Source: Candidatus Bathyarchaeota archaeon (GTDB taxonomy: Archaea; Thermoproteota; Bathyarchaeia; Bathyarchaeales; Bathycorpusculaceae). Taken from it: a DNA stretch of 64,000 bases. The position numbers and the translations under genes are program-made. Shown here piece after piece: positions 7,928 through 54,170 of this stretch (the first letter of the stretch is position 1; the number at the start of each line of letters is the position of its first letter). The DNA lies in contig CAVRFW010000005.1 in assembly GCA_963720565.1 (NCBI GenBank), positions 1-64,000 on the forward strand. The letters run 5' to 3'. The notes under the pieces are model-generated. The model was not told where the DNA came from. It searched no databases and saw only the letters and a program-made list of their open reading frames with translations.

Positions 7928-8027
7928 TTATTTTATGCAATAAAGTAAATTTCATGCACTCTTATGCACTAAAGTAAATTTTATTTATTTTATGCAATAA
8001 AGTAAATTTTATGCACCTTTATGCAAT
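7928..8027. repeat. AT-rich 57-bp tandem repeat with six ATGCA units
   Basis: TTATTTTATGCAATAAAGTAAATTT at 7928 and 7985. Confidence 0.8.
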
Positions 8028-8074
8028 TAAGCTTATAATTGCGGTTTTTCTTGTGTTTTAAGTGTGATTTAAGC

Positions 8075-9915: not shown

Positions 9916-10395
9916 GTGGGTTTCTACAGCAGCTATAAGGCTGTTTTAGACGCTGTTGTCACTGCCGTCGACGGGAAAGCTTCGATTGGAACCGTGCTCT
10001 TGGGAGAACAGTTCACTGTCGGAGCTCTGCCCAAAGCTGTGATTAACGCGTTGCCTAGCCCCGTGGTTCAAGCGTCGCTGGACGGTGTCCTCGAGGTTCA
10101 TGTGGCTTTCAGCGTTATCCTGGTGATTTTGGAGTATGAGCCTAACGACTGGTTTGCCGACATTGTAACGGTGATGGGCGACGCTGTGGACGCTGTTTTG
10201 GCTGATGTGACTTTGGGCGGAAAGGCATTGAACGTTTATCCGACCTTGTTTAGTCCCGGCGAAATAAAATTCAAAGACAAGGTCTACTACGGGGGCCAGG
10301 TGAATTTTGACCCGTTGATAAATGAGAGCGATAGGACAAACCCTACCCCATTCTTCTTTTTTTGTTGCGGCTGTGATTTGACCAGGCGCGCTTAA
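9916..10395 (+). CDS. Tail terminator/completion-like protein, C-terminus probably replaced near 10310
   Basis: position after gp10; AVLADVTLGG motif; odd FFFFCCGC tail. Confidence 0.55.
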   Translation: MGFYSSYKAVLDAVVTAVDGKASIGTVLLGEQFTVGALPKAVINALPSPVVQASLDGVLEVHVAFSVILVILEYEPNDWFADIVTVMGDAVDAVLADVTLGGKALNVYPTLFSPGEIKFKDKVYYGGQVNFDPLINESDRTNPTPFFFFCCGCDLTRRA

Positions 10396-10712
10396 TAGAA
10401 TATGGGGGGTTGCATCGAAAATACGCAGTTTATCAAAATCAAGATAACTGATGGAATCACAATAATAGCATAAAATGTGAATAGTCTTCGTTTGTCTTCA
10501 TCCTCAAAAAATTGCCTTCCAATTCCGATTATTCCAACTGTGAGAAGAATTGTTCCTCCAAGCATAGAAATCCAGAAAATAGGCATCGTGGGCAACGATG
10601 TCAACATGTTGTCTAAACCAATAACATTCGAATAGAGAGCAGCAAAAAGTATTGATAGAGAAATAGTTCCCAAGATTGCAATGAATCCATAAACAAGTTT
10701 AGGATGTTTCAT
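10392..10712 (-). CDS. MKH(P/S)xL family 3-TM protein, copy 1
   Basis: shared MKHP..YGF and GI.GIGRQ motifs. Confidence 0.75.
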   Translation of the reverse strand: MKHPKLVYGFIAILGTISLSILFAALYSNVIGLDNMLTSLPTMPIFWISMLGGTILLTVGIIGIGRQFFEDEDKRRLFTFYAIIVIPSVILILINCVFSMQPPIFY

Positions 10713-10733
10713 CTTTTCGCCTCCATAGTGATT

Positions 10734-11058
10734 CTAGAGCCCAACAGGCGCACTCACCGACAAGAAAATGTACAAGAAGAAGATGCAAGCCACAATTAGT
10801 TGAATAGCATATAGAGCAAATAGGCTTCCGTTGTTCCTTGGAATATTGCTTGCCTATTCCCCATATTCCAGCAGTAAGAAGAACTGTTCCTCCAGGCAGA
10901 CAGAACAAGAAAATAGGGGTAAAAAGTGGTATGGATAACAATGAAGCAAATGTGCTTCCTGAACCAAAATTCTTTTGATAAAGAATTGCAAAGAATATTG
11001 TGAGAAGGACAATTCCCAAAACTGCAATGAATCCGAGAATAAATGCAGGATGTTTCAT
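10734..11058 (-). CDS. MKH(P/S)xL family, copy 2 (frameshift near 10825)
   Basis: shifted frame gives LFALYAIQLIVACIFFLYIFLSVSAPVGL-stop at 10734. Confidence 0.7.
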
Positions 11059-11079
11059 CTCTTTGACTCCATAGCGATT

Positions 11080-11415
11080 TTAGTATCCAATGGTTAGTGT
11101 GTTCATCCAAAAATAAAAAAGCAAGCTGAAGATGAGCAATGGAACTAAAACAACATGAAACCAAAACAACCTTTGAGACATGTTCTTGAAGAAATATTGC
11201 TTTCCAACTCCACACACTCCAAGAGCCAGTGAGAATGTTCCACCAATGAAGAATAATATGCGAAGATTACTAGAAACATCATTAAGAAGGCTTTGAGAGT
11301 GCACTAACGCCAGAAGGTCAAACCAATCAGCAAGACTCCAAGGCAGCGCAACAAAGATTAGAGAGACAACTCCTAAAACCGCAAAGAATCCATAAACAAG
11401 CCTAGGATGCTTCAT
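11080..11415 (-). CDS. MKH(P/S)xL family, copy 3
   Basis: MKHPRLVYGF; GVGKQY. Confidence 0.75.
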   Translation of the reverse strand: MKHPRLVYGFFAVLGVVSLIFVALPWSLADWFDLLALVHSQSLLNDVSSNLRILFFIGGTFSLALGVCGVGKQYFFKNMSQRLFWFHVVLVPLLIFSLLFYFWMNTLTIGY

Positions 11416-11435
11416 CGTTTAGCTCCATAGTGATT

Positions 11436-11785
11436 TTAGAATCCAACTGTTAATGCACCCATCCAGAAATACAAAAACAAGCCAAACACAACTGATAGAA
11501 TTACAATCACAGCAAGTATTGTAAATGAGTCTACACGCCTGCGTGTAAATGGGTTTGGACTATTCACTAGATATTGCCTTCCAATTCCCACTATCCCAGC
11601 TTTGAGAAAAAATGTTCCACCCAACAAACAAAACCAGATAAAACAACCTAAAGATGCTGGACAGAGGAAAACAATCTCCAAACACTATTGTAAACAGCAT
11701 TATCAGCAATAATCGTAAAAAGTGTTGACAGAAGGACAATTCCTAGGACTGCCATGAATACATAAACAAGTCTAGAATGTTTCAC
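11436..11785 (-). CDS. MKH(P/S)xL family, copy 4 (frameshift near 11690)
   Basis: GTG-KHSRLVYVF at 11785 joins ORF 11436-11681. Confidence 0.7.
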
Positions 11786-12056
11786 TACTATTTTCCTGCA
11801 AGGCTTAAGCACTCAACTGGTTAAAGCTGTAGATATTTGGGTTTTATGAATACACAGTAAAGTTTTCTCTACGCACCAAAAACTGTTACCATGTTTCTGA
11901 AAGCTAGCCAGCATCAAAGTTTCCCTATGCAAGAAAATAAAATAGGAAAGAAGCAAGCGCATATGACTAAGCATTCTAAGCTGTTTATAGAGTGTTTTCA
12001 AGCCCTTTCTGGACCAAAGTAAGCTGTATTATCGCATTTTGATTTTCAACAATTGA

Positions 12057-12674
12057 TTATGGTAATGTGAATTGAGCCCTGCCATTATTACAATCCCAAC
12101 TACCACCAAGTATTACAAGATACTCTCCTGATGGAAGAGTAGTGTTAAAATTCACAGCAAAAGTTTTTTCTGAACCACCTGGCAAGACACATAATCCTTC
12201 GTCATTGCACAATGATGCAGCCAAGGTGCCATTGCTGTAATCGACATATGCACTGAAAATTCTACTATCACTGCTAACAATTGATTTAACACTAAGAGAG
12301 AGGACAAGTGGACTATCATCAACCACTATGACTTGTGTTATTTCACTCCTCATTGGGGGGTATAGGAACAGTGTATTGTCAGCAATCGCTGTAGTTGCAG
12401 AAAACACTGCGGCAAAAGTCAACACAGGAACCAAAACAGCAGCAAGCGCAGTGAAAAGCCGCTTGTGGCTCTTAAGATGCTGCCTTCCAATTCCAACAAT
12501 TCCAACCGTCAGAAAGAATACTCCAATAAGCAAGAAATAGAGTAAAAATTTAAATGGCAATGCAAAAACGCTTATTGCGTCTATACAGTTCAAGTAGTAG
12601 CCTACAAGACACAATGTCAGGAAGACTATTCCCAAGATTGCAAGTAATCCATAGAAAAGTCTGGAGTGCTTCAC
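12057..12674 (-). CDS. MKH(P/S)xL family, copy 5, with extra C-terminal Ig-like domain
   Basis: same N-terminus plus a beta-rich extension (LPSGEYLVIL). Confidence 0.75.
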   Translation of the reverse strand: MKHSRLFYGLLAILGIVFLTLCLVGYYLNCIDAISVFALPFKFLLYFLLIGVFFLTVGIVGIGRQHLKSHKRLFTALAAVLVPVLTFAAVFSATTAIADNTLFLYPPMRSEITQVIVVDDSPLVLSLSVKSIVSSDSRIFSAYVDYSNGTLAASLCNDEGLCVLPGGSEKTFAVNFNTTLPSGEYLVILGGSWDCNNGRAQFTLP

Positions 12675-12765
12675 TTTTGGCTAGCCTGCAGGAATCCGTT
12701 GGACCTGTTAATATTTGGTTTTTATGAATACACAGTAAAGTTTTCTCCACTCACCAAAAAAAACT

Positions 12766-13047
12766 CTATGTTGTGCTTTGTCTTGCCTCTCTGCCTCTTC
12801 CCAGCTTGATGATAAAATATAGATTGACCACGACTGATAGCCAGAAGATCACGAATGGAAAATTAGGAATAATGACAAACCCAAGCATGTTGTTTGAGGG
12901 TGTAGCTTGAATCCAGAGCCAGTTAGAGAACACTATGCACCCATTGCAAATCATCCAGACATAGGCATTGCCCCAGACAAAAAGCAAACACAACAAAACA
13001 TTAACCAAAATCACAAGTTTCATATGTTTGGACACAGGCTCACCCAA
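12766..13047 (-). CDS. Small 2-TM protein (paralog of 15033-15344)
   Basis: KLVILVN...PF.IFW....NLYFIIKL.R. Confidence 0.7.
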   Translation of the reverse strand: MGEPVSKHMKLVILVNVLLCLLFVWGNAYVWMICNGCIVFSNWLWIQATPSNNMLGFVIIPNFPFVIFWLSVVVNLYFIIKLGRGREARQSTT

Positions 13048-13175
13048 TACAGAACAAGTTCAAAGAGAGATTTAATTTTTCTGCAAAGTTTTCTCTACAC
13101 ACCAAATTTCTTAAACAAAACTATCATAATAAGAAGACACATAGAAAATAAACACTAAGAGTAGTTGCAATTAGC

Positions 13176-13670
13176 ATGTCATTTTCACCTGTCGCAATTC
13201 CTCCAATGTGGGATTATATACAGTATTATACATGGCTAATGGGAGCATTCATCATAGCAGGAATAGTTGCCTTGCTAGCTTACCCAGCACATTATCGAAA
13301 AGTAGCCTTGTTCTGGGGCATCACTGGACTCTCCCAAATAGTTGTTTCCGGACTTACTTATTATCCAGACTTTATCTTTGTTGTTTTTCCATACGCAACA
13401 CTAGGACTTTTTGCTCTAACATGCGGAACAGTAATGCTAACATATGGTTCAATAACATCAAAGCAAACCAGCAACGCGATGGGCGTAGGATTTCTAGTAT
13501 TGGGCTGCATCTTGCTTCTTCCCATCATCAATTTCTTAGCAATGTACTTTGTTCTAGTTCAAATAGAATTTCTAGTATCTGGACTTATCACCATAGCTTG
13601 TGGAATCTTGATTTTATACAAAGCAAAGTTTTCTCTACGCACCCAGACTCATTTGCGTTTCTTGAAGTAA
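13176..13670 (+). CDS. Multi-TM membrane protein; reads through a repeat copy
   Basis: hydrophobic ORF; 3' end spans the 13625 motif. Confidence 0.65.
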   Translation: MSFSPVAIPPMWDYIQYYTWLMGAFIIAGIVALLAYPAHYRKVALFWGITGLSQIVVSGLTYYPDFIFVVFPYATLGLFALTCGTVMLTYGSITSKQTSNAMGVGFLVLGCILLLPIINFLAMYFVLVQIEFLVSGLITIACGILILYKAKFSLRTQTHLRFLK

Positions 13671-14605
13671 ACAAGCAAACCTATGGCAGCCAAAACTATC
13701 CCAATTATTGAGACTGCTATGAGAACAACTTGAACATCCACAGGTTCTTGAATTGACTGGACTACAGGTAGAATAGATGAGAAATTCGGAATAGCCAAAG
13801 GATTCACCAAGGGATGATTATCCTGAAATACTCTTTTCTCAAAACCTATAGAATCCGGAAAAGAATAAGGCATATTCCACACTCCAGAAGAATCAACTTC
13901 TGATGCATTTGGATATCTCGTTGAATAGTCGCTCCAATAGTTTCTGTCAAATGTTTCATCTCCACTAAGGGCTAAATGAGCCCCAAAAACAATGTTATTC
14001 TCTGTTACCGTGTTGCCACTGACAGCAAAATGCATGTAGATTGCAGGTGAACCCCCAATAGTACAATGAGTAATATTATTGCCTGAACTACCCCAAAACA
14101 AAATACCCAAACTATCCCCAGAGAAATTACCTGTTCCATTTTGAGTAACAAAGTCATTTGAGATGCAATTGCCATAAAAGGTATGTTTACCTCCAAAATC
14201 ACATTTTATGCCCCACTTGAAGTTTGTTATTCGCAGGTTTCTTACAGTTACGTTCCAAATATCCAGTTCAGAAGGATGCCCTGTTGCTTCGCTTGATATG
14301 TCTATTCCTGTCCCATTATTGCCATTAAGGGTGAATCCAACCCCATCAATTACAATGTTGCTTTTTCGCACCTGTATGTTGCCTGAAATGTTACCAGTAA
14401 AAGTGTAAGTGTTCAAGTTGCGTTGGATCTGGTTAGTTCCTTCTATGCTTCCATCATCATTGATGGTTATTACTACTTCTCTTTGTTGAAGTGTTTGGGC
14501 ACTAACTATAGAAGGTTGAGCATTTGCCAAATTTACTATCTGACTTTCAACTGCTATGACTAATAACAGAAGTGCCAACGTCAGCACTAACGCTGTCTTC
14601 TTCAT
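13649..14605 (-). CDS. NosD/right-handed beta-helix surface protein
   Basis: signal peptide; NIVIDGVG; NYWSDY; C-terminal TM followed by KKRK. Confidence 0.85.
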   Translation of the reverse strand: MKKTALVLTLALLLLVIAVESQIVNLANAQPSIVSAQTLQQREVVITINDDGSIEGTNQIQRNLNTYTFTGNISGNIQVRKSNIVIDGVGFTLNGNNGTGIDISSEATGHPSELDIWNVTVRNLRITNFKWGIKCDFGGKHTFYGNCISNDFVTQNGTGNFSGDSLGILFWGSSGNNITHCTIGGSPAIYMHFAVSGNTVTENNIVFGAHLALSGDETFDRNYWSDYSTRYPNASEVDSSGVWNMPYSFPDSIGFEKRVFQDNHPLVNPLAIPNFSSILPVVQSIQEPVDVQVVLIAVSIIGIVLAAIGLLVYFKKRK

Positions 14606-14754
14606 ATCAGCACCATCTTACACAACGTCTCAAAGGCTTACTTAGCTCTCCACGAAGAACAGTCTGTTCTCCTAAAAGAACACTAAAATGATGCTTTACT
14701 CATAAAGAACCAGTCTTTCTGTACGCACCAAAAAGTAGAGTATTACAGAGTTGG

Positions 14755-14958
14755 TCATGCTATTGGTGTGCCGTAAGAATAGAACAGAACCAAAAAGACC
14801 ATGTAAACAGCATAAGCGATAACGCTAATGATTAAGACCTGAGTTTCCTTCTTCTTAACATGTTCCGCCTTTTTTGCTACTGACCAAAGCACCGCATTAG
14901 CTCCAACTAACGCCAACAACCCCAATAGAGTAAACACCAAGAAGTCCATAGGACCCAT
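14755..14958 (-). CDS. Small 2-TM protein
   Basis: ATG at 14958; two hydrophobic segments. Confidence 0.6.
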   Translation of the reverse strand: MGPMDFLVFTLLGLLALVGANAVLWSVAKKAEHVKKKETQVLIISVIAYAVYMVFLVLFYSYGTPIA

Positions 14959-15032
14959 TTTCTCACTATTCCGATTACTGAAATCCTTTCGCAATACAAA
15001 GTTTTCTCTACGCACCAATAAGAACAAGGACT

Positions 15033-15344
15033 CTATGTTGTGTTTTGTTTTTCCTCCTTGCTCCTTTCAAGCTTAATGATGAAATACAGATTTGCTGCAA
15101 GCATAATCCAGAATATCCAAAATGGAATATTATTCATTTGCTGGACAGGCACCATATGAATACTCTCTGCAATCGGAAACGCAGTAACCTTGAGTGCAGA
15201 CCATTGAGTTCCATACCCAAAATTAAACAAACGATTAACATCTCCCCACAAACTAAAAGAGAAAAAAGCATAAAGCAAACCCAACAAGGCATTAACCAAA
15301 ATAACAAGTTTCAGCTGTTTAAACACGGACCCACCCCTATACAA
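15033..15344 (-). CDS. Small 2-TM protein (paralog of 12766-13047)
   Basis: shared N- and C-terminal sequence. Confidence 0.7.
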   Translation of the reverse strand: MYRGGSVFKQLKLVILVNALLGLLYAFFSFSLWGDVNRLFNFGYGTQWSALKVTAFPIAESIHMVPVQQMNNIPFWIFWIMLAANLYFIIKLERSKEEKQNTT

Positions 15345-15520
15345 TAGAAGAGCATTTAGGATTTAATTTTTCTGCAAGTTTTTGTACGCACTCAGACTAA
15401 GATGCAGTATCACATATTGGTCAATTGGCAATGGCAAGTTTTCAACATCTGGTAAGCTGAGTTGAACTGGGCACATTTTTATATGGCTATAACTCTGTTA
15501 TATTATTGGACCTGTGATTC

Positions 15521-16025
15521 ATGCAGACCTGGAAAGATGGTGAATTCTGGCTAGCCACATCAATAATCTTTGTCACCATTGCTGTATCAATCATAGTGTA
15601 TCTGAGATTGTTTAATCTGAATTTCTTTGTTGGACCTTTCAGACTGACTCACTGGTTCACTTGGATAGGAACTCTCTTCATAGCAATCTACACTCCAATC
15701 TACCATGCGGCTAAACAGAAGTATCCTACAAAATTGAGCACCCTGCTTAGAATCCATGTTTTTGGAAACCTTTTCTCCTTCATGTTGATAACTGCACATT
15801 TCGCCCAGCAAATTAGCAGACCTGCAGAATCCTTTCCAGACCTAGGCACCGGAATGGCACTCTACATAGTTATGCCACTTCTTAGTGCTAACAGGTTACA
15901 TGCAAAGATTTAGTGTATTGAAAAGCATGAAACCTCAAACCAAGAGGTTTGTGCATATTGCTTTAGCCCTCACATTCTACATAACAATAGTTGTCCACAT
16001 CCTTCACGGACTAAATATCATTTAG
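15521..16025 (+). CDS. His-rich membrane protein, possibly heme b-binding (frameshift near 15885)
   Basis: TM helices with His; shifted frame TGYMQRF...VHILHGLNII-stop. Confidence 0.55.
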
Positions 16026-16141
16026 CACAACACCATTCTTTCTTTTCTTTCATTTTCTGCAAAGTTTTCTCTACGCACCAAACACTAATCTTTCCAAAAC
16101 AAGATGCTTTGTCGAATCTTAGAAAAACAAAGAATTATTCA

Positions 16142-16667
16142 CTAAAGTAGCAACTCTAAATGAATATCCTTTGGCTCCAACATGTACAGTTTTGGATTCA
16201 CTTTAGAAACTAACTTACAGCCCATATGCAAGTAAAAACCAATTGTATTCTTTGATGGCGTTGCCGAAATATACAATCTCTTAGCACCCAACTCTTTAGC
16301 CTTCATCACAACCTTTCTAAACAATCGTCCTCCAACGCCCTTATGCCTATAATTGCTGTCTACCTGATGAAAAACTAATTGAAGCTGATCCTTATTCTCC
16401 CCTATGAACTCAGACTCCAAAGCAGAGACCCCGATTAGCCTATTTTCCGCAAAGGCACCTAACAAGACACCATTTCTATCATAAATATCATAGAGACGGG
16501 CAATGCTCCTGTCAAGTTCAGCAGCATTCCAACCTTTCATATCATAAAATTCGTCTTTAAGAACAAGTTTTCCATCGATTAAATAGTAAACCTGCTCCAC
16601 TACCTCATTTTCTAGTAATATTCCTCACTTTTTCTATTTCATTTCTTCTAAGAGTTCTAATTTCCAT
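16142..16667 (-). CDS. GNAT acetyltransferase (frameshift near 16610)
   Basis: VDSNYRHKGVG motif A; FYLHMG; MEIRTLRR start at 16667. Confidence 0.85.
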
Positions 16668-16855
16668 TTTAGTATATAGAGGAGCAACTCTTCCATCTTA
16701 ACTTTTTCATTCTTAGCAAGGTTTCCCAGACGCTCCAAAACTGTTCTTTAATGGTCATTACAAGCATGCGCGCGCGGGGAAGGATAAAACATAAGAACGC
16801 GAACAAACAATCCACTGCCGAAAAGGAAAATGTATTTTTAAGAGAGGAGAATTCG

Positions 16856-17527
16856 TTGAGCCTTCTAAAGAAAGCTCCAATCAGGGTTGTCCTCGCAGCC
16901 TTAATCATCTTTGCAGTTACGCTCCTCATCACCTACTCGGCGATAAGCTTAGCCACGCCAGAACAACTCGGATACTCCACACCTTCCGATGACATGCCAA
17001 CCAAACCTTCTCCAAACGTCGGAGGAGAAGCATTCGCCGAAGACAATTGGGTAGGAGTCTTCGTCGTCGGTCCAGCTCCCGGAGATACAAACGTCTCCCG
17101 AGACACCTTCATCTTCTTATTCGAAACAAGACCAGTAGCAATTGACTTGCACCTGACCCCCGAAACGCCTATCGCTCGAACAACAAAAGAACCGGATGGC
17201 ATGTCTGAGATCACAACGCTTTACCCGGATGGGCTTCTTGAGCCCAACACAACATACAACGTTTCAGGAACCATCATGGGGCTGTCAGCCTGGTGGACCT
17301 TCAAGACCAGTTTTGAACCAACCCAGCCGAGAATGGAGCGCATTCTACCTCAAAACACTTGGTTAATCACCATCGGTGCAGCAACCTTGACAACATTAAT
17401 CTTCACCTTAACAGCCATACTGTGGCACCGTCACAAGTTGACCCTGTTTCGCAGAATCGCCAAGGAAAATGACAAAGGAACCATAGCGAAAGCGCGCGCT
17501 CTACTTGGTGCGAGGATTGCCGGGTAA
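16856..17527 (+). CDS. Membrane-anchored Ig-like (Big_5-like) protein
   Basis: GAGGAG then TTG; PAPGDTNVS...LEPNTTYNV...WTFKT. Confidence 0.65.
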   Translation: MSLLKKAPIRVVLAALIIFAVTLLITYSAISLATPEQLGYSTPSDDMPTKPSPNVGGEAFAEDNWVGVFVVGPAPGDTNVSRDTFIFLFETRPVAIDLHLTPETPIARTTKEPDGMSEITTLYPDGLLEPNTTYNVSGTIMGLSAWWTFKTSFEPTQPRMERILPQNTWLITIGAATLTTLIFTLTAILWHRHKLTLFRRIAKENDKGTIAKARALLGARIAG

Positions 17528-17568
17528 TTCAGATGCAGTTTAAGCAAACATATGGCATATGGGAATAA
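17505..17568 (+). pseudogene. 3' fragment of a zinc-ribbon microprotein gene
   Basis: WCEDCRVIQMQFKQTYGIWE-stop; homologous to 18821-18884. Confidence 0.6.
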
Positions 17569-17654
17569 AGTGTGCATGATTCAGAACAGAGAACCAACTC
17601 AAACGGTCTGCCAAACAGATATAAAATAAGGAAGAGCGTGCGCCTAGGACGCAG

Positions 17655-18092
17655 TTACTTGGCTTCTTCTGGAAAGAGATTCTTTCCTTTTTCTGTGATT
17701 TTGATAGCACCTATTTGTTTAAACATATCTATGTTGTCAGTGACGTTCCAGTATTCTGCAAGTTTGCCATTAACTATGCGATAGATGTCAACACCCTTAG
17801 TTGTTATCTTATTGCCAGTAGGGGCTAATCCAAAAAATTCGTTTTTATGGGTCCCCGTGTAAGTAAGGCGAACCCACACCTTATCCCCTTCAGCAATTAT
17901 GTCTTCAATAGTTTCATGCCAATCGGGGAAGGCTTTAAGACCCATAGCAAATAGTTGTTTGAGTCCTTCTCGGTCTACCTTGTTGGTGTGGTCAACATAA
18001 TCTGGTGCTATAAACTCGTTGAAATCCAAGTTTCGCTTATTGTAGGCTTCAATCCACCTACGAACAATTGCCTTATTCTCTTCCAATGACAT
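17655..18092 (-). CDS. SnoaL-like ester cyclase
   Basis: ENKAIVRR, AFPD, IAEGDKV and APTG motifs. Confidence 0.9.
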   Translation of the reverse strand: MSLEENKAIVRRWIEAYNKRNLDFNEFIAPDYVDHTNKVDREGLKQLFAMGLKAFPDWHETIEDIIAEGDKVWVRLTYTGTHKNEFFGLAPTGNKITTKGVDIYRIVNGKLAEYWNVTDNIDMFKQIGAIKITEKGKNLFPEEAK

Positions 18093-18127
18093 ATAACATC
18101 ACCCGGCTGGTCTCTCTTTTTCAATAT

Positions 18128-18622
18128 TTAACGGTTCTGCTTAAGGTTCTGAGCAAACTCTTCTGCATGTTTGAGGTCTTCAGCATTAGGTCTGCCCTTA
18201 TTTATTCCCCCAAATAGTCTATTGAAACTATTAGTGTTAAAACCTGCACAACTAAATTCGTCAACAATCAAGTAACCTTTAGATTGCAGTTTTTCCCTAA
18301 GCGACGAGTGATTTTTGGCAACATACTTAGTAAACTCTGTTTTGTCTAGCTCCATGAACTTCATTGGAGCTCCACAGGTTGAGAAGATGAAAGCTTTCTT
18401 TTCAGTGACTTGTGGCAGTGCATCAGCAAAGTCAAGTAGTTCTCTGTAGTGTTTTCCGCTATCTATTCCTGCTCCAAAACCTACAAGGTCATGTTGATTT
18501 AGTTCTTCAGGATTAGTCTGTTGCGGAGACTTCACCTTTGCATCAAGCACCTTAGCTATAGCCTGGGCTACTTTTTGGGTGTTGTTATGATGGTAAGAAT
18601 ACACAACTAACAAAGACTTCAT
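18128..18622 (-). CDS. Flavodoxin family protein
   Basis: SYHHNNTQKVA; DLVGFGAG; GRPNAEDL. Confidence 0.85.
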   Translation of the reverse strand: MKSLLVVYSYHHNNTQKVAQAIAKVLDAKVKSPQQTNPEELNQHDLVGFGAGIDSGKHYRELLDFADALPQVTEKKAFIFSTCGAPMKFMELDKTEFTKYVAKNHSSLREKLQSKGYLIVDEFSCAGFNTNSFNRLFGGINKGRPNAEDLKHAEEFAQNLKQNR

Positions 18623-18740
18623 AGCAGACTCTTCCTTTCCAACTTCATTTCTTAGCCACTTCTCTGGTTTAATCACGAATAGAATCTAAGTCTCTTAAAT
18701 CATTGACCCCAGATTTAGGTTCAAAAAATGAAGATGGTTA

Positions 18741-18884
18741 ATGTGTCCTGTCTGCAAAAAAGAAGCCCGTCACTGCACCAAAGACACACATGAAGGTCCT
18801 GTCTCGAAGATGCGTAGAATTTGGTGCGAGGACTGCCGAGTAGTTCAGATGCAGTTTTAAACAAACAAACGGCAAATGGGAATA
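18741..18884 (+). CDS. Zinc-ribbon microprotein (CPVC...CEDC)
   Basis: MCPVCKKEARHC...WCEDCRVVQMQF; an extra T near 18857 truncates KQTNGKWE. Confidence 0.55.
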
Positions 18885-18993
18885 GAAAGTACTACTTCTG
18901 AGCATAGAAGCACCTTTAGCGCGCATTAAATTTAATGCCAATTGTTAAATAGAAAATAAGCTGATAGACACTAACCTGGAGAAAGGGGTAAAA

Positions 18994-19452
18994 GTGAAGT
19001 TTTACGAGAAGTATGCATGGGTGATATTACTAGCTGTAGGGCTGCTATGGTTGGTGGTTGGAATAGTTGCTGTGTTCCAGCCAGAAGGAATATTTGAGGC
19101 GGACGCCCAATCTGTCACAAACATGCCCTGGAGTGAGCTCAAGGCTTCGAGCCCTGTGGCCGCTCACTTTGTTATCTTCGTATACGGGCAAATGGGCCTA
19201 CTCAAGATAAGCTGGTCATTGTTCATATTAGCCATAACTCTAACGGGTTATCGTAGGGGAGAAAAATGGGCTTGGTATATAATGTTATTAGCTCCTATCC
19301 TCCTGGTAAGCGATGCAGTTTTCAGCGTAGTCTTCATCGGCGACATCAACCAAGTACTACAGTTTATCCCAATTACAGCCATAACGATGCTTGGGCTACT
19401 TCTGCCCTACAGGATATTCTTCCCAAAGAAACCATCGGATGTGCAACAATGA
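18994..19452 (+). CDS. Membrane protein
   Basis: 4 TM; GYRRGEKWAW. Confidence 0.7.
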   Translation: MKFYEKYAWVILLAVGLLWLVVGIVAVFQPEGIFEADAQSVTNMPWSELKASSPVAAHFVIFVYGQMGLLKISWSLFILAITLTGYRRGEKWAWYIMLLAPILLVSDAVFSVVFIGDINQVLQFIPITAITMLGLLLPYRIFFPKKPSDVQQ

Positions 19453-19853
19453 ATATAAAACTGGTACTGAGTGCAGCGTTTGCAGTTGCAGCTTACTTTT
19501 TAGGCATTATAGCCGACGCGAACCATAATACGGACAGCGTGATTTATCCCGCCGCATGTTTTTCCAAAATATTCCTCTTCTTGGCAGCCATTCCGCTTGC
19601 TAACTCTGCTGGCAAAAGCATCAGAAAACAGTTGGGCACAACGGGGATTCCAGGTTTAAGGTTCACAAGTTGGATCCTGTATGGCGTTGCAATAGTTCAT
19701 TTTGCATTTTTCTTTATGTGGCCCACTATTGCAAGCGGAAATACCCAGCTCCCAGACGGGCAAATAACGGTTGATGCTACGATTTTTCTTATGGCGTCGA
19801 TGTTTATGATTGCAGACGCCTGGAATTCACAAAAAGGCAAAGATAGTGTATAA
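19449..19853 (+). CDS. Membrane protein
   Basis: ATGA overlap with the previous gene; 4 TM. Confidence 0.6.
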   Translation: MNIKLVLSAAFAVAAYFLGIIADANHNTDSVIYPAACFSKIFLFLAAIPLANSAGKSIRKQLGTTGIPGLRFTSWILYGVAIVHFAFFFMWPTIASGNTQLPDGQITVDATIFLMASMFMIADAWNSQKGKDSV

Positions 19854-19860
19854 CTTGAAA

Positions 19861-20799
19861 ATGAAAGCAGCCCTCTACGAGAAATATGGATCGCCCGAGG
19901 TTTTAAACCTCAAAGAAATAGAAAAACCAGTTCCAAAAGACAATGAAGTACTGATAAAAATCCACGCCACAACTGTAGCAGCGGGAGACATAAGAATGCG
20001 AGGCTTCAAAGTCCCAAAGAAATTTTGGCTCCCTATGCGGTTCGCTTTAGGTTTAACAGGGCCAAAAAATAAAGTCCTTGGGATGGAGGTGTCTGGGGTA
20101 GTCGAGACAGTTGGCAAAGGTGTGGAAAAATTTAGGGTTGGTGATGAAGTCTTTGCTGCAACCGGTTTTGGTGGGGGGTATGCAGAGTATATTTGTCTTC
20201 CAGAGACAGACGTGGTGGGTAGAGTAGTTATAGAGGTCGCAAAGAAACCGGCAAATTTGACTTTTGAGGAAGCTGCTGCTGTTCCCATTGGGGGAATGAC
20301 TGCACTGGCTTTTCTTAGGAAAGCAAACGTCAAGAACGGGCAGAAAGTACTTGTGTTCGGAGCGTCGGGAAGTGTTGGCACTTATGCGGTTCAGCTTGCT
20401 AAGTATTACGGTGCAGAAGTTACCGGCGTATGTAGCGCCTCAAATTTGGAGTTAGTCAGATCTTTAGGGGCGGATATTGTGATTGATTACGTCAAAGAAG
20501 ACTTCGCCGAAAACGGTCAGAAATATGACCTTGTTTTTGACGCCGTAGGCAAAATATCGAGTTCACACGCTAAAGGATCGCTGACAGAAAACGGCGTCTT
20601 TCTCTCCACTTGGGGAGACCCAGGCGTCGAGCCAGATGACTTGTCAACACTTAGCGGTCTAATTGAAGCTGGCACACTAAAAGCGGTTATCGACAGAACA
20701 TACCCCTTGGAGCAGATAGCTGAGGCTCACAGGTATGTTGAATTGGGACACAAAAAGGGAAATGTCGTCATAACTGTGGAACATAATAATAGAACCTGA
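19861..20799 (+). CDS. NAD(P)-dependent MDR oxidoreductase (quinone reductase/ADH-like)
   Basis: GASGSVG, YAEY and AEAHRY...GNVV motifs. Confidence 0.9.
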   Translation: MKAALYEKYGSPEVLNLKEIEKPVPKDNEVLIKIHATTVAAGDIRMRGFKVPKKFWLPMRFALGLTGPKNKVLGMEVSGVVETVGKGVEKFRVGDEVFAATGFGGGYAEYICLPETDVVGRVVIEVAKKPANLTFEEAAAVPIGGMTALAFLRKANVKNGQKVLVFGASGSVGTYAVQLAKYYGAEVTGVCSASNLELVRSLGADIVIDYVKEDFAENGQKYDLVFDAVGKISSSHAKGSLTENGVFLSTWGDPGVEPDDLSTLSGLIEAGTLKAVIDRTYPLEQIAEAHRYVELGHKKGNVVITVEHNNRT

Positions 20800-20858
20800 C
20801 AAAGTAACCTTGGAAGAAAGCGGGTCTGCCAGCTTCGTCTGACTTGCGATTGTTAGGC
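20794..20858 (+). other. Degenerate attC-like site
   Basis: ACCTGAC (contains the stop codon) ... GTTAGGC; 65-bp imperfect inverted repeat. Confidence 0.4.
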
Positions 20859-20910
20859 GTGGCATAGGCATATAAGCTCTATGAAGCGTAAATTGAAGTC
20901 GTGTATTACA

Positions 20911-21621
20911 ATGTCAGGAATTAACATAACAAACCGAATCGCAGATTTATCGCCACGCAAGACCGCAAGAATGGCGGGGCTGTTTTACCTAATTTTCATA
21001 ATAACTACTGTTTTAGCCACGTATATCCGCGATAGATTTATTGTATCCGGAGATGCAGCAGCCACAGCCAATAATATTATGGCTTCTCAGGAGCTATTCC
21101 GAGTTGGTTTTGTAACCGAACTAGTCTCCGCAACGTTTTTCGTTTTAGCAGCATGGGCGCTTTATGTGTTGTTAAAACCTGTTAACAAAAACCTGGCTTT
21201 GCTTTTCTTGTTATTAAACTTGGGCGGCGTCGCCGTAGAGTGTATTAATGCGCTAAATCTATTTGCAGCCCTTCAGTTTTTGAGCAGCGCTAATTACCTA
21301 AGCGTATTTCAAACAGGTCAGCTGCAAGCAATGGCAATGTCATCTCTTAATCTATACACAAATGGGTTTTTAATCGCACAGATATTTTTCAGCGTTTGGC
21401 TACTTCCTCTTGGTTACTTAGTTTACAAATCGCGCTTCCTTCCTAAATTTTTAGGTCTACTGCTGATCCTTGATTTCTTCGGCAATATGAGTTGGTTTTT
21501 ACAGGGTTTCCTTCTCCCCGACTACAAAATATTAGCATACCCAGGAAATGCAATTAGCTTTATTGCAGAAATTGCTCTTACTGCGTGGCTTTTGATCATG
21601 GCTGTTAAAGAACAGAAATAG
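20911..21621 (+). CDS. DUF4386 family membrane protein
   Basis: ARMAGLFYL, DAAATANNI and LPKFLG motifs. Confidence 0.85.
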   Translation: MSGINITNRIADLSPRKTARMAGLFYLIFIITTVLATYIRDRFIVSGDAAATANNIMASQELFRVGFVTELVSATFFVLAAWALYVLLKPVNKNLALLFLLLNLGGVAVECINALNLFAALQFLSSANYLSVFQTGQLQAMAMSSLNLYTNGFLIAQIFFSVWLLPLGYLVYKSRFLPKFLGLLLILDFFGNMSWFLQGFLLPDYKILAYPGNAISFIAEIALTAWLLIMAVKEQK

Positions 21622-21652
21622 AATGACTATGATAAAGTGAAGAGGGAGAAAA

Positions 21653-22123
21653 ATGACCCAATCGAAAGATATCTGGAGAAAAATAGTAGTGCTGGCGGTC
21701 GTGGGTGGATTAACCTTCTGGGCGACTTCCATCATAACTTCCCTGCTTCCCATCGCAACAGATTATAGAGTTGCGCGATGGAGTGCGGAAACAGTTTGGG
21801 TTGGTTCTTTGCCTGCTGGTCTGGTTATCGGATTCTTGGTCAGCTTTTTCTTGGTTCGTTTCTTTGGCAAGATTCCGACAAAGAATCCAATTCTAAAATC
21901 CGTGATTCTAAGCTTGATCGCTTTAGTCATTGCCACAATTCTACTCGAAGCCCCCGCAAGTTTTGGGACGAGTGATGCCCTTTATTACTTCCTCTTCGGC
22001 ACAATGCTTAATGTACCAAGGTTTCTCTTTGTTGGAATAGTTATTGGCTATCTATACAAAAGGTTGTACAAAGGAGTCAATCCAGCCGTAGTTGCTTCCA
22101 AGTCTCCTCAAGTGGATAGTTAA
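21653..22123 (+). CDS. Membrane protein (tandem paralog A)
   Basis: KIPTKNPILKS...GIVIGYLYKRLYKG. Confidence 0.75.
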   Translation: MTQSKDIWRKIVVLAVVGGLTFWATSIITSLLPIATDYRVARWSAETVWVGSLPAGLVIGFLVSFFLVRFFGKIPTKNPILKSVILSLIALVIATILLEAPASFGTSDALYYFLFGTMLNVPRFLFVGIVIGYLYKRLYKGVNPAVVASKSPQVDS

Positions 22124-22129
22124 ACAACC

Positions 22130-22582
22130 ATGGAACCCCCAGCCACAGATCGAACTAAGCACCAGACGTCACATGAGTTCTACAAGAAACTGATTAAACT
22201 GACTGTAGCGGGAGGATTAGCCTTCTGGATAGTTGACTTTGCAGTCTCTCTGTCTCCCATCTCTGCGGAGTATATGGCTGCTTTTTCAATTTCTTCTCTT
22301 CCATTGGCTCTTGTTGAAGCTTTGGTTGGTGGTCTGATTATCGGATTCTTTGTCAGCTTTTTCTTGCTTCGTTTTTTTGACAAGATTCCGACAAATAATC
22401 CAATTCTAAAGTCCTTGATTCTCAGCTTTGCTGCCATAGTCGTTATCGAAGTCCTTTCAACTTTTGGCAATCCAAGCAATGCCTACGTCTACCTTTTAAT
22501 CGACACAATAATGAACATTCCAAGGATTCTCGCTCTTGGAATAGTTATTGGCTATCTATACAAAAGGCTGTACAAAGGATGA
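22130..22582 (+). CDS. Membrane protein (tandem paralog B)
   Basis: same motifs as 21653. Confidence 0.75.
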   Translation: MEPPATDRTKHQTSHEFYKKLIKLTVAGGLAFWIVDFAVSLSPISAEYMAAFSISSLPLALVEALVGGLIIGFFVSFFLLRFFDKIPTNNPILKSLILSFAAIVVIEVLSTFGNPSNAYVYLLIDTIMNIPRILALGIVIGYLYKRLYKG

Positions 22583-22843
22583 GCATGCCATATATTATAT
22601 GCAATACTCGTCGCGCGTTGTTCTTCATGGGTCTGGAACGTTCAAGGGGCAAACGCTGTTATTGTCAGGCGACTTTGGAATTGCCAATGACAACATTCAC
22701 TATAGTGCGCGCGTGTAAAGATTCCTTGACTCAAAATTTTCTCTACGCACCAAAACTTCATTTGCGTTTCCTTTGTCTGGCTCTGATGAGTTTCACCTGA
22801 AATCATAAATTGTTAGACACGCATATCGTAGTTAGGTCACTAC

Positions 22844-23368
22844 ATGAACAAACATCATGTAAGTGTCATAATCTACATTTCAATGGTCCTCGTTATCCCA
22901 ATACTAATTATCAGCGCTGCCTCCAAAGATGTCTCCTGGATCAGCGAAGTGGAGAATCACATCAAAAAAGAGAATTGGGTACCTGATGTGGAATACGTGC
23001 CCCTTGCCTTTGGAAGTTTCTTCTTATACGAGAATGGAGAAGAACAATTCTTTGTCCTGACTTCTGAGAGAGAATTTGAATCTTACATGGATGCTTTAGC
23101 AAGCAGAGTTTCTATTCAAACTAAAACCTCCATCACAAGGGAAGCTCTGGATGAAATATTAGCTGCAGACAAAGTCCTGAGTTATGTCCACAGGTTTCCA
23201 GAAAGTTTTGGTCCACTAGGGTCATGCGGAAGCTTTGAAGTAGCCTATTTCATCTTAGAAGACAAACTGGAGCAGGGTCTAGAAGGCAAAATAGTAATGC
23301 AGGACAGACGCGCAGGAGAATACTCTCACTATAGCGTTTGGCAGATACCAGACTGGATCTTTTGGTAG
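22844..23368 (+). CDS. Secreted/membrane-anchored hypothetical protein
   Basis: N-terminal TM; lies between two repeat copies. Confidence 0.65.
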   Translation: MNKHHVSVIIYISMVLVIPILIISAASKDVSWISEVENHIKKENWVPDVEYVPLAFGSFFLYENGEEQFFVLTSEREFESYMDALASRVSIQTKTSITREALDEILAADKVLSYVHRFPESFGPLGSCGSFEVAYFILEDKLEQGLEGKIVMQDRRAGEYSHYSVWQIPDWIFW

Positions 23369-23510
23369 TTTTCTATGTTTTCCAGACGCTCTCACACTCT
23401 ATGTGGATTAACCTGATTCTGCGTTGGATTTTGATTTTTGATCCAGAACAGGCTATTTTGCCCAACATCACCAATGCAGCAAGCGAGTATTTTGACAGTT
23501 TTGGGTAGTT

Positions 23511-24441: not shown

Positions 24442-24771
24442 ATGCTGAAAACTGCAGTGGACCTTTGGCCAGGCAATGAAGTCTTGCTCTGCCCGGTTTG
24501 CGGATGCGAATACGTCCACCCGCTCAAAGTGAAAGTGGCAACCGACAATGGAATCGTTACAATCGATTCAGAAGGCTGCAGCATCATCCAAGGCGACACG
24601 GCCGAAACCAATGAAGCCGCGCAAGCACGTGGCGTACGCATAATTTTAGAGTACCGCTGCGAAGACGGGCATCATGGCAACCTGATCCTGCAGTTCCACA
24701 AAGGCAGCACGTTTGTTCATCACGAAATCTTGCCGACGGATGATGGACTGAAAACTCTATGGCGCAGCTAA
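24442..24771 (+). CDS. Zinc-binding protein (CPVC...CEDGH)
   Basis: LCPVCG...YRCEDGH...FHKGST. Confidence 0.65.
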   Translation: MLKTAVDLWPGNEVLLCPVCGCEYVHPLKVKVATDNGIVTIDSEGCSIIQGDTAETNEAAQARGVRIILEYRCEDGHHGNLILQFHKGSTFVHHEILPTDDGLKTLWRS

Positions 24772-27492: not shown

Positions 27493-27873
27493 TTGAAGGA
27501 CCTCATAGTCGTCCGCTACGTTGACCATGTGCTCTACAATCGAGCTTCCGCTCTGGCAATGCAGCCCCAAATCAGAGAAGCAGTAGGCTGGCTTGTCTAC
27601 GAGTGCCAACAATACGTGACGCTTGCTTGGGATCATGACGCCCAACCGCCATCTCTGCATGGCGGGGACCCGAAAGCCTCAGGACTAGTGCTATTGAAGT
27701 CGGATATTTTGGAGCTCAAGAAGCTTGACGCCGCCTCTTCGCCATTACAAAAAAATTCAGAATGGCAAATAAATCCAACAGAACCCATAGCTAAAGCAGA
27801 GTATGCGCTTCAGACAGAGAAGCGAAAAACTCAAAAGAAAAATAAAGATTCGAAGAGAGAGACGGCAAAATGA
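27493..27873 (+). CDS. Hypothetical virus-like protein
   Basis: VRYVDH...VGWLV pattern; ATGA overlap with the integrase. Confidence 0.55.
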   Translation: MKDLIVVRYVDHVLYNRASALAMQPQIREAVGWLVYECQQYVTLAWDHDAQPPSLHGGDPKASGLVLLKSDILELKKLDAASSPLQKNSEWQINPTEPIAKAEYALQTEKRKTQKKNKDSKRETAK

Positions 27874-29306
27874 CAGCCGAAACCATTACTGAAGCAATCA
27901 GCCGCCAACCCATAACGCGAACACGCCAGCTCACAGTTGACGAACTAAAAACCCTGCAGCTCCCCATAACTATTCAAGACGACAAAATCATCATCACCCA
28001 CAGCCTAAGAGGCTGGAAACTCCGGCAACCAGTCATCCTAAGCCTAAACAAAGTGCTCGCAGCCAAAGAAAGAGGCCTAGTCACCTACATCCTAACTGCC
28101 TTTCTAAGCGATCGCCCACCAATGATCCCCTTAGTCTTCGACAACCAAAGCCTACTCAAGATGGCACGCCACTTCCTACGCCACTGCTCCGGCTCACACC
28201 ACAGCTGCATCATCTACACGGTCAAAGTCAACAAATACGCAGCCTGGCTAGGCTACAGCCCCGACCTAATCATCCAAGACCTAAAACCAGTCGGAAACAT
28301 CCCAGACCCGCAAAGAGTCCAAAACCACCAAGGATACCTCAACGACTACTTAGCCGAGCTCCAAGACGACGGGCTCAAACCAGGCACAGTCAACAACTGC
28401 ATAAAAGCAGTAAAAACATTCTACCGCGTAAACGGAGCCAAAATCGAGCTCACAGAACCCCTCAGCAGACGAGTAACCTACAAGGACCGAGCGCCAAAAC
28501 CCGAAGAACTCGCCAAACTCTTAGACCTAGCCGATCTACGCGGAAAAGTCATAGTGTCATGCTTAGCTCTGGGCGCCTTCAGGGAAGAAACCTTCACAAA
28601 ACTCAAGTACCGACACGTACGAGAAGACATCGAAAACAACAGAACCCCCATCCACGTACACGTAGAAGCAGAAATCACCAAAGGAAAATACCACGACTAC
28701 GACACCTTCATCGGAGCAGAAGCAGCCCACTACCTCAAGCTGTACCTGGAGCAGAGAAGAAAAGGCACCATCAAAACGCCGCCCGAACAACTAACCGACG
28801 AGTCACCGCTAATCCGCAACGAAACAAGAGCAAGCCCGCAAGACATTAGCGCAAAGCAAATCCGAAAACACGTCCATGAACTCTACCTCAAAGCAGAGCT
28901 AATAAAAAAACAAAACGGCAGAATGTACAACCTCAGAGTCCACAGCCTACGCAAATACTTCAAAACCCAACTCCTCGCCTTAGGCGTCCAACCCGACTAC
29001 GTCGACTACATGATGGGCCACACCGTAGACACCTACCACGACATCCAAAGCATAGGAATAGACAGACTCCGCAACGCCTACGCATCATCCGGACTAGCCA
29101 TACGACAAAAAACAAGCATCAGCAAAGTCGAAGCCCTCAAAGAAATCATACGCGCCTGGGGCATGAACCCAGAACAACTCCTATCCAGAGACGCCCTATC
29201 CGACGGCGCAACAACCAACAAAAACCAAGAAGACCTCGAAAACCGTCAACTGATCATCCTGAGCAACCAACTAAAACAGCTAATCCAGCACGCAGCAACA
29301 CCATAA
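27870..29306 (+). CDS. Tyrosine recombinase/integrase
   Basis: GAFR (R), TKG (K), HSLRKYF (HxLR), MMGH and TYH (Y); SAM-like N domain. Confidence 0.92.
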   Translation: MTAETITEAISRQPITRTRQLTVDELKTLQLPITIQDDKIIITHSLRGWKLRQPVILSLNKVLAAKERGLVTYILTAFLSDRPPMIPLVFDNQSLLKMARHFLRHCSGSHHSCIIYTVKVNKYAAWLGYSPDLIIQDLKPVGNIPDPQRVQNHQGYLNDYLAELQDDGLKPGTVNNCIKAVKTFYRVNGAKIELTEPLSRRVTYKDRAPKPEELAKLLDLADLRGKVIVSCLALGAFREETFTKLKYRHVREDIENNRTPIHVHVEAEITKGKYHDYDTFIGAEAAHYLKLYLEQRRKGTIKTPPEQLTDESPLIRNETRASPQDISAKQIRKHVHELYLKAELIKKQNGRMYNLRVHSLRKYFKTQLLALGVQPDYVDYMMGHTVDTYHDIQSIGIDRLRNAYASSGLAIRQKTSISKVEALKEIIRAWGMNPEQLLSRDALSDGATTNKNQEDLENRQLIILSNQLKQLIQHAATP

Positions 29307-29334
29307 AAACAGTATAAATACGCTTCCGGTGAAG

Positions 29335-29427
29335 CGGGTCCGAGGGGATTTGAACCCCTGTTCTTCGGCTTTCTTCCACATACGTGTCCGGAGGCCGACG
29401 CCTTAATCCGTGCTGGGCTACGGACCC
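29335..29427 (-). tRNA. tRNA-Arg(CCG) with a 17-nt intron at 37/38 (29371-29387)
   Basis: GGGTCCG/CGGACCC acceptor stem; TCGGC/GCCGA anticodon stem; GGTTCAAATCC T arm; BHB-like intron. Confidence 0.92.
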
Positions 29428-54011: not shown

Positions 54012-54170
54012 ATGGTGATCCTCTTGTAATGGGTTTGAAATGTGTTTGATTTCACTGTTTGAAACCTTTCAACTTAGCTTCTAAGCTTCTATGGCTTTTT
54101 TACTTTTTGTGCTTAGAATATAGTTTCTGTTTTCAGTCTTTCTCGCGCCTTAAAAATGTTCACTGCCAGT

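Follow-up and report, generated by a model that had tools for sequence, protein, structure and literature searches.

A cassette array in Bathyarchaeia that looks integron-like but is built from different parts, with a split tRNA-targeting integrase as candidate enzyme

Integrons are the one well-known dedicated system for capturing gene cassettes. Here, we describe an array of co-oriented repeats, mostly with one gene between neighboring copies, in a 64,000-nt stretch of DNA from a Candidatus Bathyarchaeota archaeon (contig CAVRFW010000005.1, hereafter the window). The original prediction was that of an integron-like cassette array built on a 22-bp site that is not attC, possibly driven by the tyrosine recombinase encoded at 27870. 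The observation itself is confirmed and that interpretation is partly supported: a direction-fixed, non-attC site does bound exchangeable units, but the enzyme proposed for it is not supported. What we find is a cassette-array system that looks integron-like but is built from different parts, and for which another candidate enzyme can be named, an integrase split by its own insertion into tRNA genes. Integron searches rely on attC and IntI, so such a system in Bathyarchaeia is invisible to them.

Like integrons and the clusters of attC sites lacking integron integrases (CALINs; for archaeal integrons, see 10.1101/2022.02.06.479319, available in part), the system consists of tandem one-gene units between co-oriented sites, and orphan arrays without an enzyme occur. 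Again as in integrons, a recombinase gene can border the array on one side and point away from it, with a site by its 5′ end; this attI-like geometry recurs here with a different enzyme and does not imply that new units preferentially enter there. The parts differ, however. The boxes and hairpin of attC are absent and no IntI was found, the enzyme-proximal site has the same sequence as the unit sites, genes face both ways (51 versus 35 single-gene units), and the enzyme linked to the array is a tRNA-targeting split integrase.

Integrases of that type are known as the suicidal integrases of SSV1, pTN3 and pT26-2 (PF16795; PMC8371274 and PMC7253208, in the available parts of both). As in those elements, att lies inside the gene, the N-terminal part of the gene, int(N), abuts a tRNA gene, and the C-terminal part, int(C), lies after a half-tRNA. 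The anticodon loop is where identity stops, PF16795 is matched over its cut-off, and the fold matches the catalytic domain of SSV1 Int. In contrast, the integrases described here bear a CxxC-containing N-terminal domain of no clear known fold, target both 5′ and 3′ tRNA halves within one family, and occur as several units in tandem. Their repeated upstream site, moreover, bounds cassettes, a word that does not occur in the available text of PMC8371274 or PMC7253208.

Two further systems bear comparison. In the pdif modules of Acinetobacter plasmids (PMC13141974, available part), short double-stranded sites likewise bound accessory modules that are deleted, cointegrated and reshuffled; pdif sites, however, are served by the host XerC/XerD and inversions occur, whereas here all sites are co-oriented, no XerA scores over its cut-off, and the site is tied to the promoter of an element-borne integrase. 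In the accretion of integrative conjugative and mobilizable elements (ICEs and IMEs), cis-mobilizable elements (CIMEs) without an integrase pile up by a tRNA gene before an integrase-bearing unit (PMC5704250, available part), much as here. CIME junctions are copies of att, whereas the junction site here lies ~400 bp from the tRNA att, upstream of the integrase gene. Our literature search, outside which most subscription papers lay, found no description of this site or of cassette arrays beside split integrases. The string 'Bathy' does not occur in the main text of the archaeal-integron preprint (10.1101/2022.02.06.479319), whose supplements, outside the search, may list Bathyarchaeia genomes; and 'cassette' is absent from the main text of papers on Bathyarchaeia viruses (PMC10848311) and Asgard mobile elements (PMC11529989).

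The repeat and the units between its copies

Seven copies of the 22-mer occur in the window at two or fewer mismatches, all on the + strand (11859, 12737, 13085, 13625, 14998, 16061 and 22733), and none of 100 shuffled windows contains a match. Four more degenerate copies (16718, 14711, 23374 and ~15376) make 11, all co-oriented, in line with the number and single orientation predicted. The copy at 16718 has six mismatches to the 22-mer yet scores 37.6 bits on a wider profile, which brings the strong copies to eight and leaves three decayed ones. Those at 14711 and 23374 score 11.9 and 10.6 bits, the latter being rated weak on its own because the reversed genome yields six matches of at least 8 bits, and the copy at ~15376, which carries a 2-base deletion, was recognized by eye. 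Elsewhere in the window there is no profile match, as had been noted; one six-mismatch word at 54105 (−) does not score.

The consensus comprises a T-rich flank, AGY, AAAG TTTTCT, CT or AG, ACGCTCCAAAA, and then a weaker extension to about position 36. With its T-rich left flank and right extension, the site exceeds the 22 bp originally assigned to it. Positions 4–10 form a nearly invariant block of 6–7 bp in 145 of 191 copies. Pairs of attC boxes (RYYYAAC…GTTRRRY) are found at none of the 11 window copies, which fold no more strongly than shuffles (z −1.4 to +2.0), and over 192 contexts the median minimum free energies of −1.2 and −1.9 kcal/mol indicate that the site does not fold. Nor is this a CRISPR array: the copies are 286–1,889 bp apart (5th–95th percentile, 170 units), as opposed to regular spacers of 25–45 bp. 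On both counts the first assessment was correct, as it was in finding one gene in nine of the ten window intervals (the gene at 15521–16026 is frame-broken) and tandem, divergent and convergent junctions.

In the source genome (G000; C-numbers denote its contigs), 18 copies occur at two or fewer mismatches. The wider profile puts 21 of 22 matches of at least 12 bits in four clusters, against two matches in the reversed genome. These clusters are the window array, C3 168–169.5 kb, C9 368–371 kb and C9 387.6–388.4 kb, each with one orientation within it, and none of the matches is at a core gene; the repeat is thus not scattered genome-wide near core-gene promoters. The C3 cluster and the first C9 cluster end beside tRNA-Arg genes, with a small open reading frame (ORF) encoding a CxxC motif between array and tRNA. 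Among relatives, 1 of 40 genomes has a match at two or fewer mismatches, and just 14 of 401 class genomes, G000 included, have any match to a looser pattern, so the site is not a shared chromosomal dif. An exact degenerate scan returned at least 125 metagenome stretches and 30 genome loci, 11 of the latter in five Bathyarchaeia assemblies; the other 19, single matches in bacterial records, were excluded as chance, and three single matches in viral contigs, inside phage genes, were taken as chance too. Over a set of 77 of these metagenome loci, nine Bathyarchaeia loci and three regions of G000, the profile gives 259 matches (199 distinct), compared with none in 540,869 reversed bases. All 56 loci with at least two copies, several of which overlap or are re-assemblies, have them on a single strand. 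Below, L-numbers denote individual metagenome or genome loci, other G-numbers other genomes, and X-numbers public sequencing runs.

The units from site to site (n = 170) have a median length of 625 bp. Of 130 distinct units, 86 hold one ORF, 25 two, 10 more and 9 none; the genes of single-ORF units face against the site in 51 cases and with it in 35. Convergent junctions account for 36 of 157 classified copies (50 more are unclassified), and these copies score no lower than the others. The site is in this respect independent of the genes, in line with the original argument against a promoter or terminator role. The site's right half, however, lies in the integrase promoter region (see below), and the site is therefore not wholly unrelated to a promoter.

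Neighbors change at this direction-fixed site. Among 22 pairs of homologous units below 99% identity, 14 have a different neighbor, 2 have the same one and 6 are uninformative. The window unit at 13085–13646 recurs in C9 at 370702–370141 (93.9%) with different neighbors on both sides, and that at 14716–15018 recurs at C9 387917–387606 (84%). When the 10–24 kb part of the window is aligned to other loci, 1 of 44 alignments crosses a site. Contigs of four public runs from four studies, at 85% likeness, join window units at sites in new orders: 15377 via an intact site to 14739 (174 bp on the shorter side), 16082 to 14747, 12758 to 13656, and 23380 to 16735. These are the best-supported joints, others falling away from sites, and the contigs come from relatives rather than the source strain; the best run holds 0.16 of the window's words, which means that the public runs contain no reads of that strain. 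Gene order, then, is not invariant but differs between arrays and strains. We infer that the exchange is catalyzed and that units pass through circles. The crossover would fall between positions 12 and ~20 of the 22-mer. The narrower cores that we tried (5–10, 8–14, 11–17 and 13–19) each conflict with some pair or with the mixing of alleles described below.

A split integrase beside the site

The CxxC ORF beside the tRNA encodes the N-terminal half of an integrase, which other loci carry as a complete gene. The integrase matches PF16795 (39 bits versus a cut-off of 27 in L039) and is weakly similar, by sequence and fold, to the SSV1 integrase catalytic domain. R257, K307, R350, R373 and Y383, which we take to be its catalytic residues, are conserved in at least 90% of 56 sequences. 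Among the 120 homologues listed, 31 are intact, with the N-terminal domain and all catalytic motifs. Residues 1–66 of the L072 protein are predicted with confidence to fold into four strands and a helix with a CxxC pair, without a clear structural match (best Z 4.0); this domain remains as a stand-alone frame after integration.

Two loci give a natural view of the gene before and after integration. L072 encodes an intact 409-aa integrase with the 5′ half of tRNA-Arg inside the gene, while in L117 the same N-terminal half continues into a full-length tRNA-Arg. Over 1,724 bp the two loci are 99.8% identical. One end of this shared stretch is at the anticodon loop, and the other is inside the cassette site, where positions 11–12 differ and 13 onward agree. 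Half-tRNAs precede int(C) in 32 parsed cases, int(N) extends to the tRNA-Arg genes in G000 C3 and C9, and targeting of both 5′ and 3′ tRNA halves occurs within the family. Tandem split-integrase units are found on single contigs, some with stops or truncations (L172 and L173 in G527:C8, L188 in G170:C18), and some of the units in G527:C8 and L188 have been rejoined into hybrid genes with an early stop. In the set of PMC7253208, as far as its available text goes, tandem insertion was not observed for the suicidal integrases of Thermococcales.

Because kin are not independent, the linkage between integrase and site is given as counts, not tests: in the metagenome loci, 9 of the 49 terminal copies are followed by an integrase start, as against 1 of the 101 inner ones, at a distance of 90–110 bp in 13 of 14 cases and always co-oriented. 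A search for int(N) located integrase starts in 87 of the 301 genomes of the family searched. We then considered 49 integrase starts chosen regardless of the motif, from 40 places hand-picked from that search and seven listed regions. In 42 of the 49, the site's right half runs into a conserved GGTC and a TATA-like box, compared with 3.3% of random windows. Upstream of these starts are 48 further right-half copies in the same orientation, a few of which belong to other integrase starts, and 5 in the opposite one; a reversed control gives 5 (421 kb). After a mixed cluster of secreted proteins, the integrase family is the commonest near sites (21 loci).

The window itself has no int(N) behind its integrase-proximal site. 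The flanks of the copy at 16718 are those of the integrase-proximal copy of L106, where the gene is present. The copy at 16718 is a promoter-linked copy with the integrase gene deleted, and the window array is an orphan inside a different, provirus-like element.

Possibly two sites for one recombinase, and other readings

How can these observations be reconciled? The reading that we favor, and hold to be about as apt to be right as wrong, is that the repeat is the core of a second recombination site of small tRNA-integrating elements, probably used by the intact form of the split integrase. One copy of the site would lie directly upstream of the integrase promoter, and other copies would bound cargo units of ~0.3–2 kb that have their own promoters and face either way. 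Each unit would comprise a right half-site, cargo and a left half-site, and units would be gained, lost and reordered through recombination between co-oriented copies. The likeliest enzyme would be the intact integrase, present on the excised circle and at tandem junctions; bound at the site, it would repress or sense its own promoter. The window array has lost its integrase gene and is now carried inside another element. That the integrase may act on the cassette site is suggested, indirectly, by their linkage, by the intact forms of the enzyme and by a modest similarity between one att arm and the site. A recombination site overlapping the promoter of its recombinase is a familiar arrangement, seen in the res site of Tn3. 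A relative, Int-pTN3, recombines non-att sequences (PMC5495485, available part).

In a broader and more tentative form, a single tyrosine recombinase might serve two unrelated sites, integrating at a tRNA gene and thereby splitting its own gene, and collecting and shuffling cassettes beside its own promoter. In such an independently evolved equivalent of integrons, shuffling might stop upon integration and resume after excision or tandem insertion, and host genes may be captured with their promoters through recombination with operator-like look-alikes of the left half-site. What keeps self-disrupting suicidal integrases common is an open question, and a second role in cargo shuffling, if true, would offer an answer. 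Bathyarchaeia are abundant, uncultured archaea of sediments, and with integrase starts in 87 of 301 family genomes, this may be a major way in which their accessory genes turn over. The proposal can be put to the test in vitro, since the site is defined, the candidate enzyme exists in intact natural copies, and natural sequence pairs show the states before and after.

Several observations weigh against a role of the integrase at the site, or against its acting in this way. The proven target of the integrase is the tRNA anticodon arm, which the site as a whole does not resemble. The att arm after the anticodon loop does bear a modest resemblance to site positions 15–23, which exceeds the 95th percentile of coding sequence in 11 of 32 cases (5% expected), with a register chosen after looking, related sequences and 11 more cases unparsed. 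The full site is found at only 10 of the 49 integrase starts, most having the right half alone, and its dyad symmetry is imperfect (0.45 mean complementarity at the best center). G000 carries two N-terminal halves (C3 and C9), and no catalytic half was found in its assembly, which is 89% complete. At 99% identity or above, all 27 of 27 pairs keep their order, so shuffling is not fast. Only 34 of 61 pairs of homologous units have left ends that agree in register to within 10 bp, and the left ends of the GNAT unit vary. Within arrays, alleles are mixed at positions 11–12 in 40 of 51 and at positions 13–19 in 38 of 51, which is awkward for a homology-dependent double exchange. Finally, no single-unit circle was seen, in contigs that cannot show one.

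It could be that the cassettes are bounded by the site but moved by another recombinase in trans, either a host Xer-like enzyme or some other tyrosine integrase including that at 27870, the site being one for multimer resolution or cointegration like pdif. We consider this unlikely. The site does differ from the tRNA att of the split integrase, G000 has arrays without a detectable catalytic half, and 40 of 61 related genomes hold other tyrosine recombinases; the near-invariant block at positions 4–10 could be a spacer, and deletions and cointegrates with matching spacers are documented for pdif (PMC13141974, available part). However, no second recombinase family recurs near sites. XerA (NF040815) exceeds its cut-off in 0 of 61 genomes, and on this ground and that of the few class genomes with a match (14 of 401) we rejected a host dif, a divergent XerA being possible. 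As for the enzyme at 27870, none of 20 regions (1.6–20 kb) around its relatives (45–81% identical) has an array, one lone weak copy aside, and it is split integrases that, in many loci, lie at a fixed distance behind the terminal site. IntI was also rejected: the best match to TIGR02249 in G000 (assembly 89% complete) reaches 27.7 bits against a cut-off of 265, and the 27870 and L072 integrases are unmatched. An origin of the site from a tRNA end or primer-binding site was set aside, there being no match by eye to the tRNA list of G000 and only tRNA-Trp among Rfam matches in 9000–30000.

A different view is that the arrays are relics of accretion, in which elements integrate serially at one tRNA gene and their integrase parts are deleted, leaving cargo and a promoter-upstream motif (an operator or arm-type site), with later exchange by homologous or relaxed-specificity recombination. 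This, too, is on the unlikely side, if a little harder to dismiss, since the tandem and decayed integrase units (G527:C8, L188) indicate that accretion and deletion also shape the islands and keep such a model alive. Among its supports, the right half is conserved upstream of integrase genes, promoters are cut off after the site (window 16768, C9 387095), scraps of the integrase C-terminus follow some copies (L023), unit left ends are ragged, and accretion with decay is known for CIMEs (PMC5704250, available part). Yet the promoter core is kept in only 4 of 150 copies lacking a following integrase, and GCGCGC, the word at which promoters are cut, occurs just downstream of 1 of 205 copies. The units are compact, mostly single-gene (86 of 130) and free of tRNA remnants at their junctions, and breakpoints fall inside a site of 22–35 bp, not in long paralogous genes; the relaxed activity of Int-pTN3 was shown on ~100 bp or more (PMC5495485, available part). 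That the repeat is nothing but a transcription-factor operator, its genes being a regulon gathered in islands without recombination, is very improbable, being largely refuted by the breakpoints. Several copies do share one distance to a TATA box, the right half borders on the integrase promoter, and the left half resembles the palindrome GTCAAG-N4-CTTGAC, which occurs ~27 times in G000, often just upstream of TATA-like boxes. But orientation tracks the array and not the genes, copies at convergent junctions are equally conserved, homology breaks at the site, and no copy is at a core gene.

The palindrome deserves mention in its own right. Its copies (one at window 22717, many in C7 54–92 kb) often form pairs 34–37 bp apart and lie upstream of the TATA-like boxes of secreted-protein genes, where they are probably activator sites. 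In C3, L051, L053, L095 and L177, palindrome copies run up to the cassette site at a spacing of 28–65 bp.

The array in the window and its surroundings

The features of the array and its immediate neighbors are as follows.

10386..10391, no strand: GCGCGC word; left edge of the array, abutting provirus-like head/tail genes; also at the far end of the C9 (371854) and C3 (170214) arrays
10392..11785, −: leftmost unit, consisting of four paralogues in tandem that encode small membrane proteins (two are frame-broken); no site separates them
11859..11880, +: site copy 1, exact
12057..12674, −: unit 2 gene, 205-aa membrane protein, fifth member of the 10392..11785 family; similarity to L113 (81%) reaches as far as the site
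12737..12758, +: site copy 2; in run X2 the start of unit 5 comes next instead
12766..13047, −: unit 3 gene, 93-aa membrane protein
13085..13106, +: site copy 3, divergent junction
13176..13670, +: unit 4 gene, 164-aa membrane protein, reading through site copy 4; the unit is also in C9 with both neighbors different (93.9%)
13625..13646, +: site copy 4, convergent junction
13649..14605, −: unit 5 gene, 318-aa probably secreted, membrane-anchored protein without a Pfam match
14711..14732, +: site copy 5, left half decayed; homology to C9 387917–387606 begins here
14755..15027, −: unit 6 gene, encoding a small membrane protein that probably starts at about 14960 instead
14998..15019, +: site copy 6
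15033..15344, −: unit 7 gene, 103 aa, paralogous to that of unit 3; matches a unit between sites in L090/L106 at 89%
15376..15395, +: site copy 7, in decayed form with 2 bases deleted; intact in run X2 and joined there to unit 6
15521..16026, +: unit 8 gene, for a membrane protein, with a break in the frame at about 15880
16061..16082, +: site copy 8, exact, convergent junction; unit 6 comes next in run X1
16142..16600, −: unit 9 gene, GNAT acetyltransferase; in L106 the integrase-proximal unit is 97.7% identical and has another left neighbor
16718..16739, +: site copy 9, integrase-proximal (attI-like); flanks as at L106:1601, where a split-integrase start comes next
16740..16775, +: remnant of the split-integrase promoter region, cut at GCGCGCGC (16768); integrase gene gone, similar cut at C9 387095
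17492..23489, no strand: ~6-kb cargo block (SnoaL, flavodoxin, zinc alcohol dehydrogenase, DUF4386 and others), starting at GCGCGCGC
22733..22754, +: site copy 10, left side overlapped by the operator-like palindrome at 22717
22844..23368, +: unit 11 gene, 174 aa; in run X5 its end is followed by the flank of the integrase-proximal copy, from 16735
23374..23395, +: site copy 11, decayed; homology to L114 stops at 23374
27870..29306, +: tyrosine integrase (478 aa) belonging to the provirus-like element around the array
29334..29427, −: tRNA-Trp gene containing a 17-nt intron, probably where that element inserted; missed by a tRNA search without intron mode

The array is flanked on one side by head/tail-like genes (Mu gp36-like and HK97 gp10-like, both below cut-off) and on the other by a module ending in the 478-aa integrase that adjoins tRNA-Trp; the contig yielded no second copy of the tRNA-Trp 3′ end. 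In runs X1 and X2, 72 bases stand in place of the block at 17492–23489, and much of the cargo at 17.5–22.6 kb is found without sites in G002, beside a relative of the 27870 integrase. Most of the cargo consists of small membrane proteins without Pfam matches, together with one GNAT acetyltransferase and the one 318-aa probably secreted protein; the GNAT label of the original prediction thus stands, whereas its NosD label finds no Pfam match at E 0.01. None of 12 window proteins matches the defense models of PADLOC. Homologues of the genes at 10392..11785 end at a site in C9 and several metagenome loci, and the family of five paralogues at 10392–12674 recurs in 11 site-bearing loci.

GCGCGC words lie at homology breakpoints and array ends (window 10386, 16768, 17492, 18919 and 22707; C9 371854 and 387095; C3 170214). 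Twice the word cuts off the integrase promoter, possibly reflecting a separate mechanism of deletion or joining. Genome-wide it is only mildly enriched (468 versus 360 expected), and with one occurrence per 205 copies it was rejected as a general unit junction. A few kb from the C3 array, at G000 C3 159757–162586, are Ku-like, ligase-like and primase-polymerase-like genes, judged by their sequence starts, which resemble a non-homologous end-joining set.

Frame-broken genes are numerous (window 10699–11058, 11436–11785, 15521–16026 and 24759–26790; G000 C5 65.5 kb, C9 323 kb and C13 120.6 kb). They include three other tyrosine recombinases, and the cause may be indels in the assembly and not decay. 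Two AT-rich direct repeats of 47 bp (window 7928–8031, with a similar stretch at C9 18975–19078) lie at the left edge of the provirus-like genes and are perhaps an element end or origin. Finally, an intergenic repeat of 60–70 bp starting TTGGTG(C/T)GAGGA is found at window 17505–17567 and 18821–18884 and at G000 C8 1710; its first letters are shared with the minus strand of the site.

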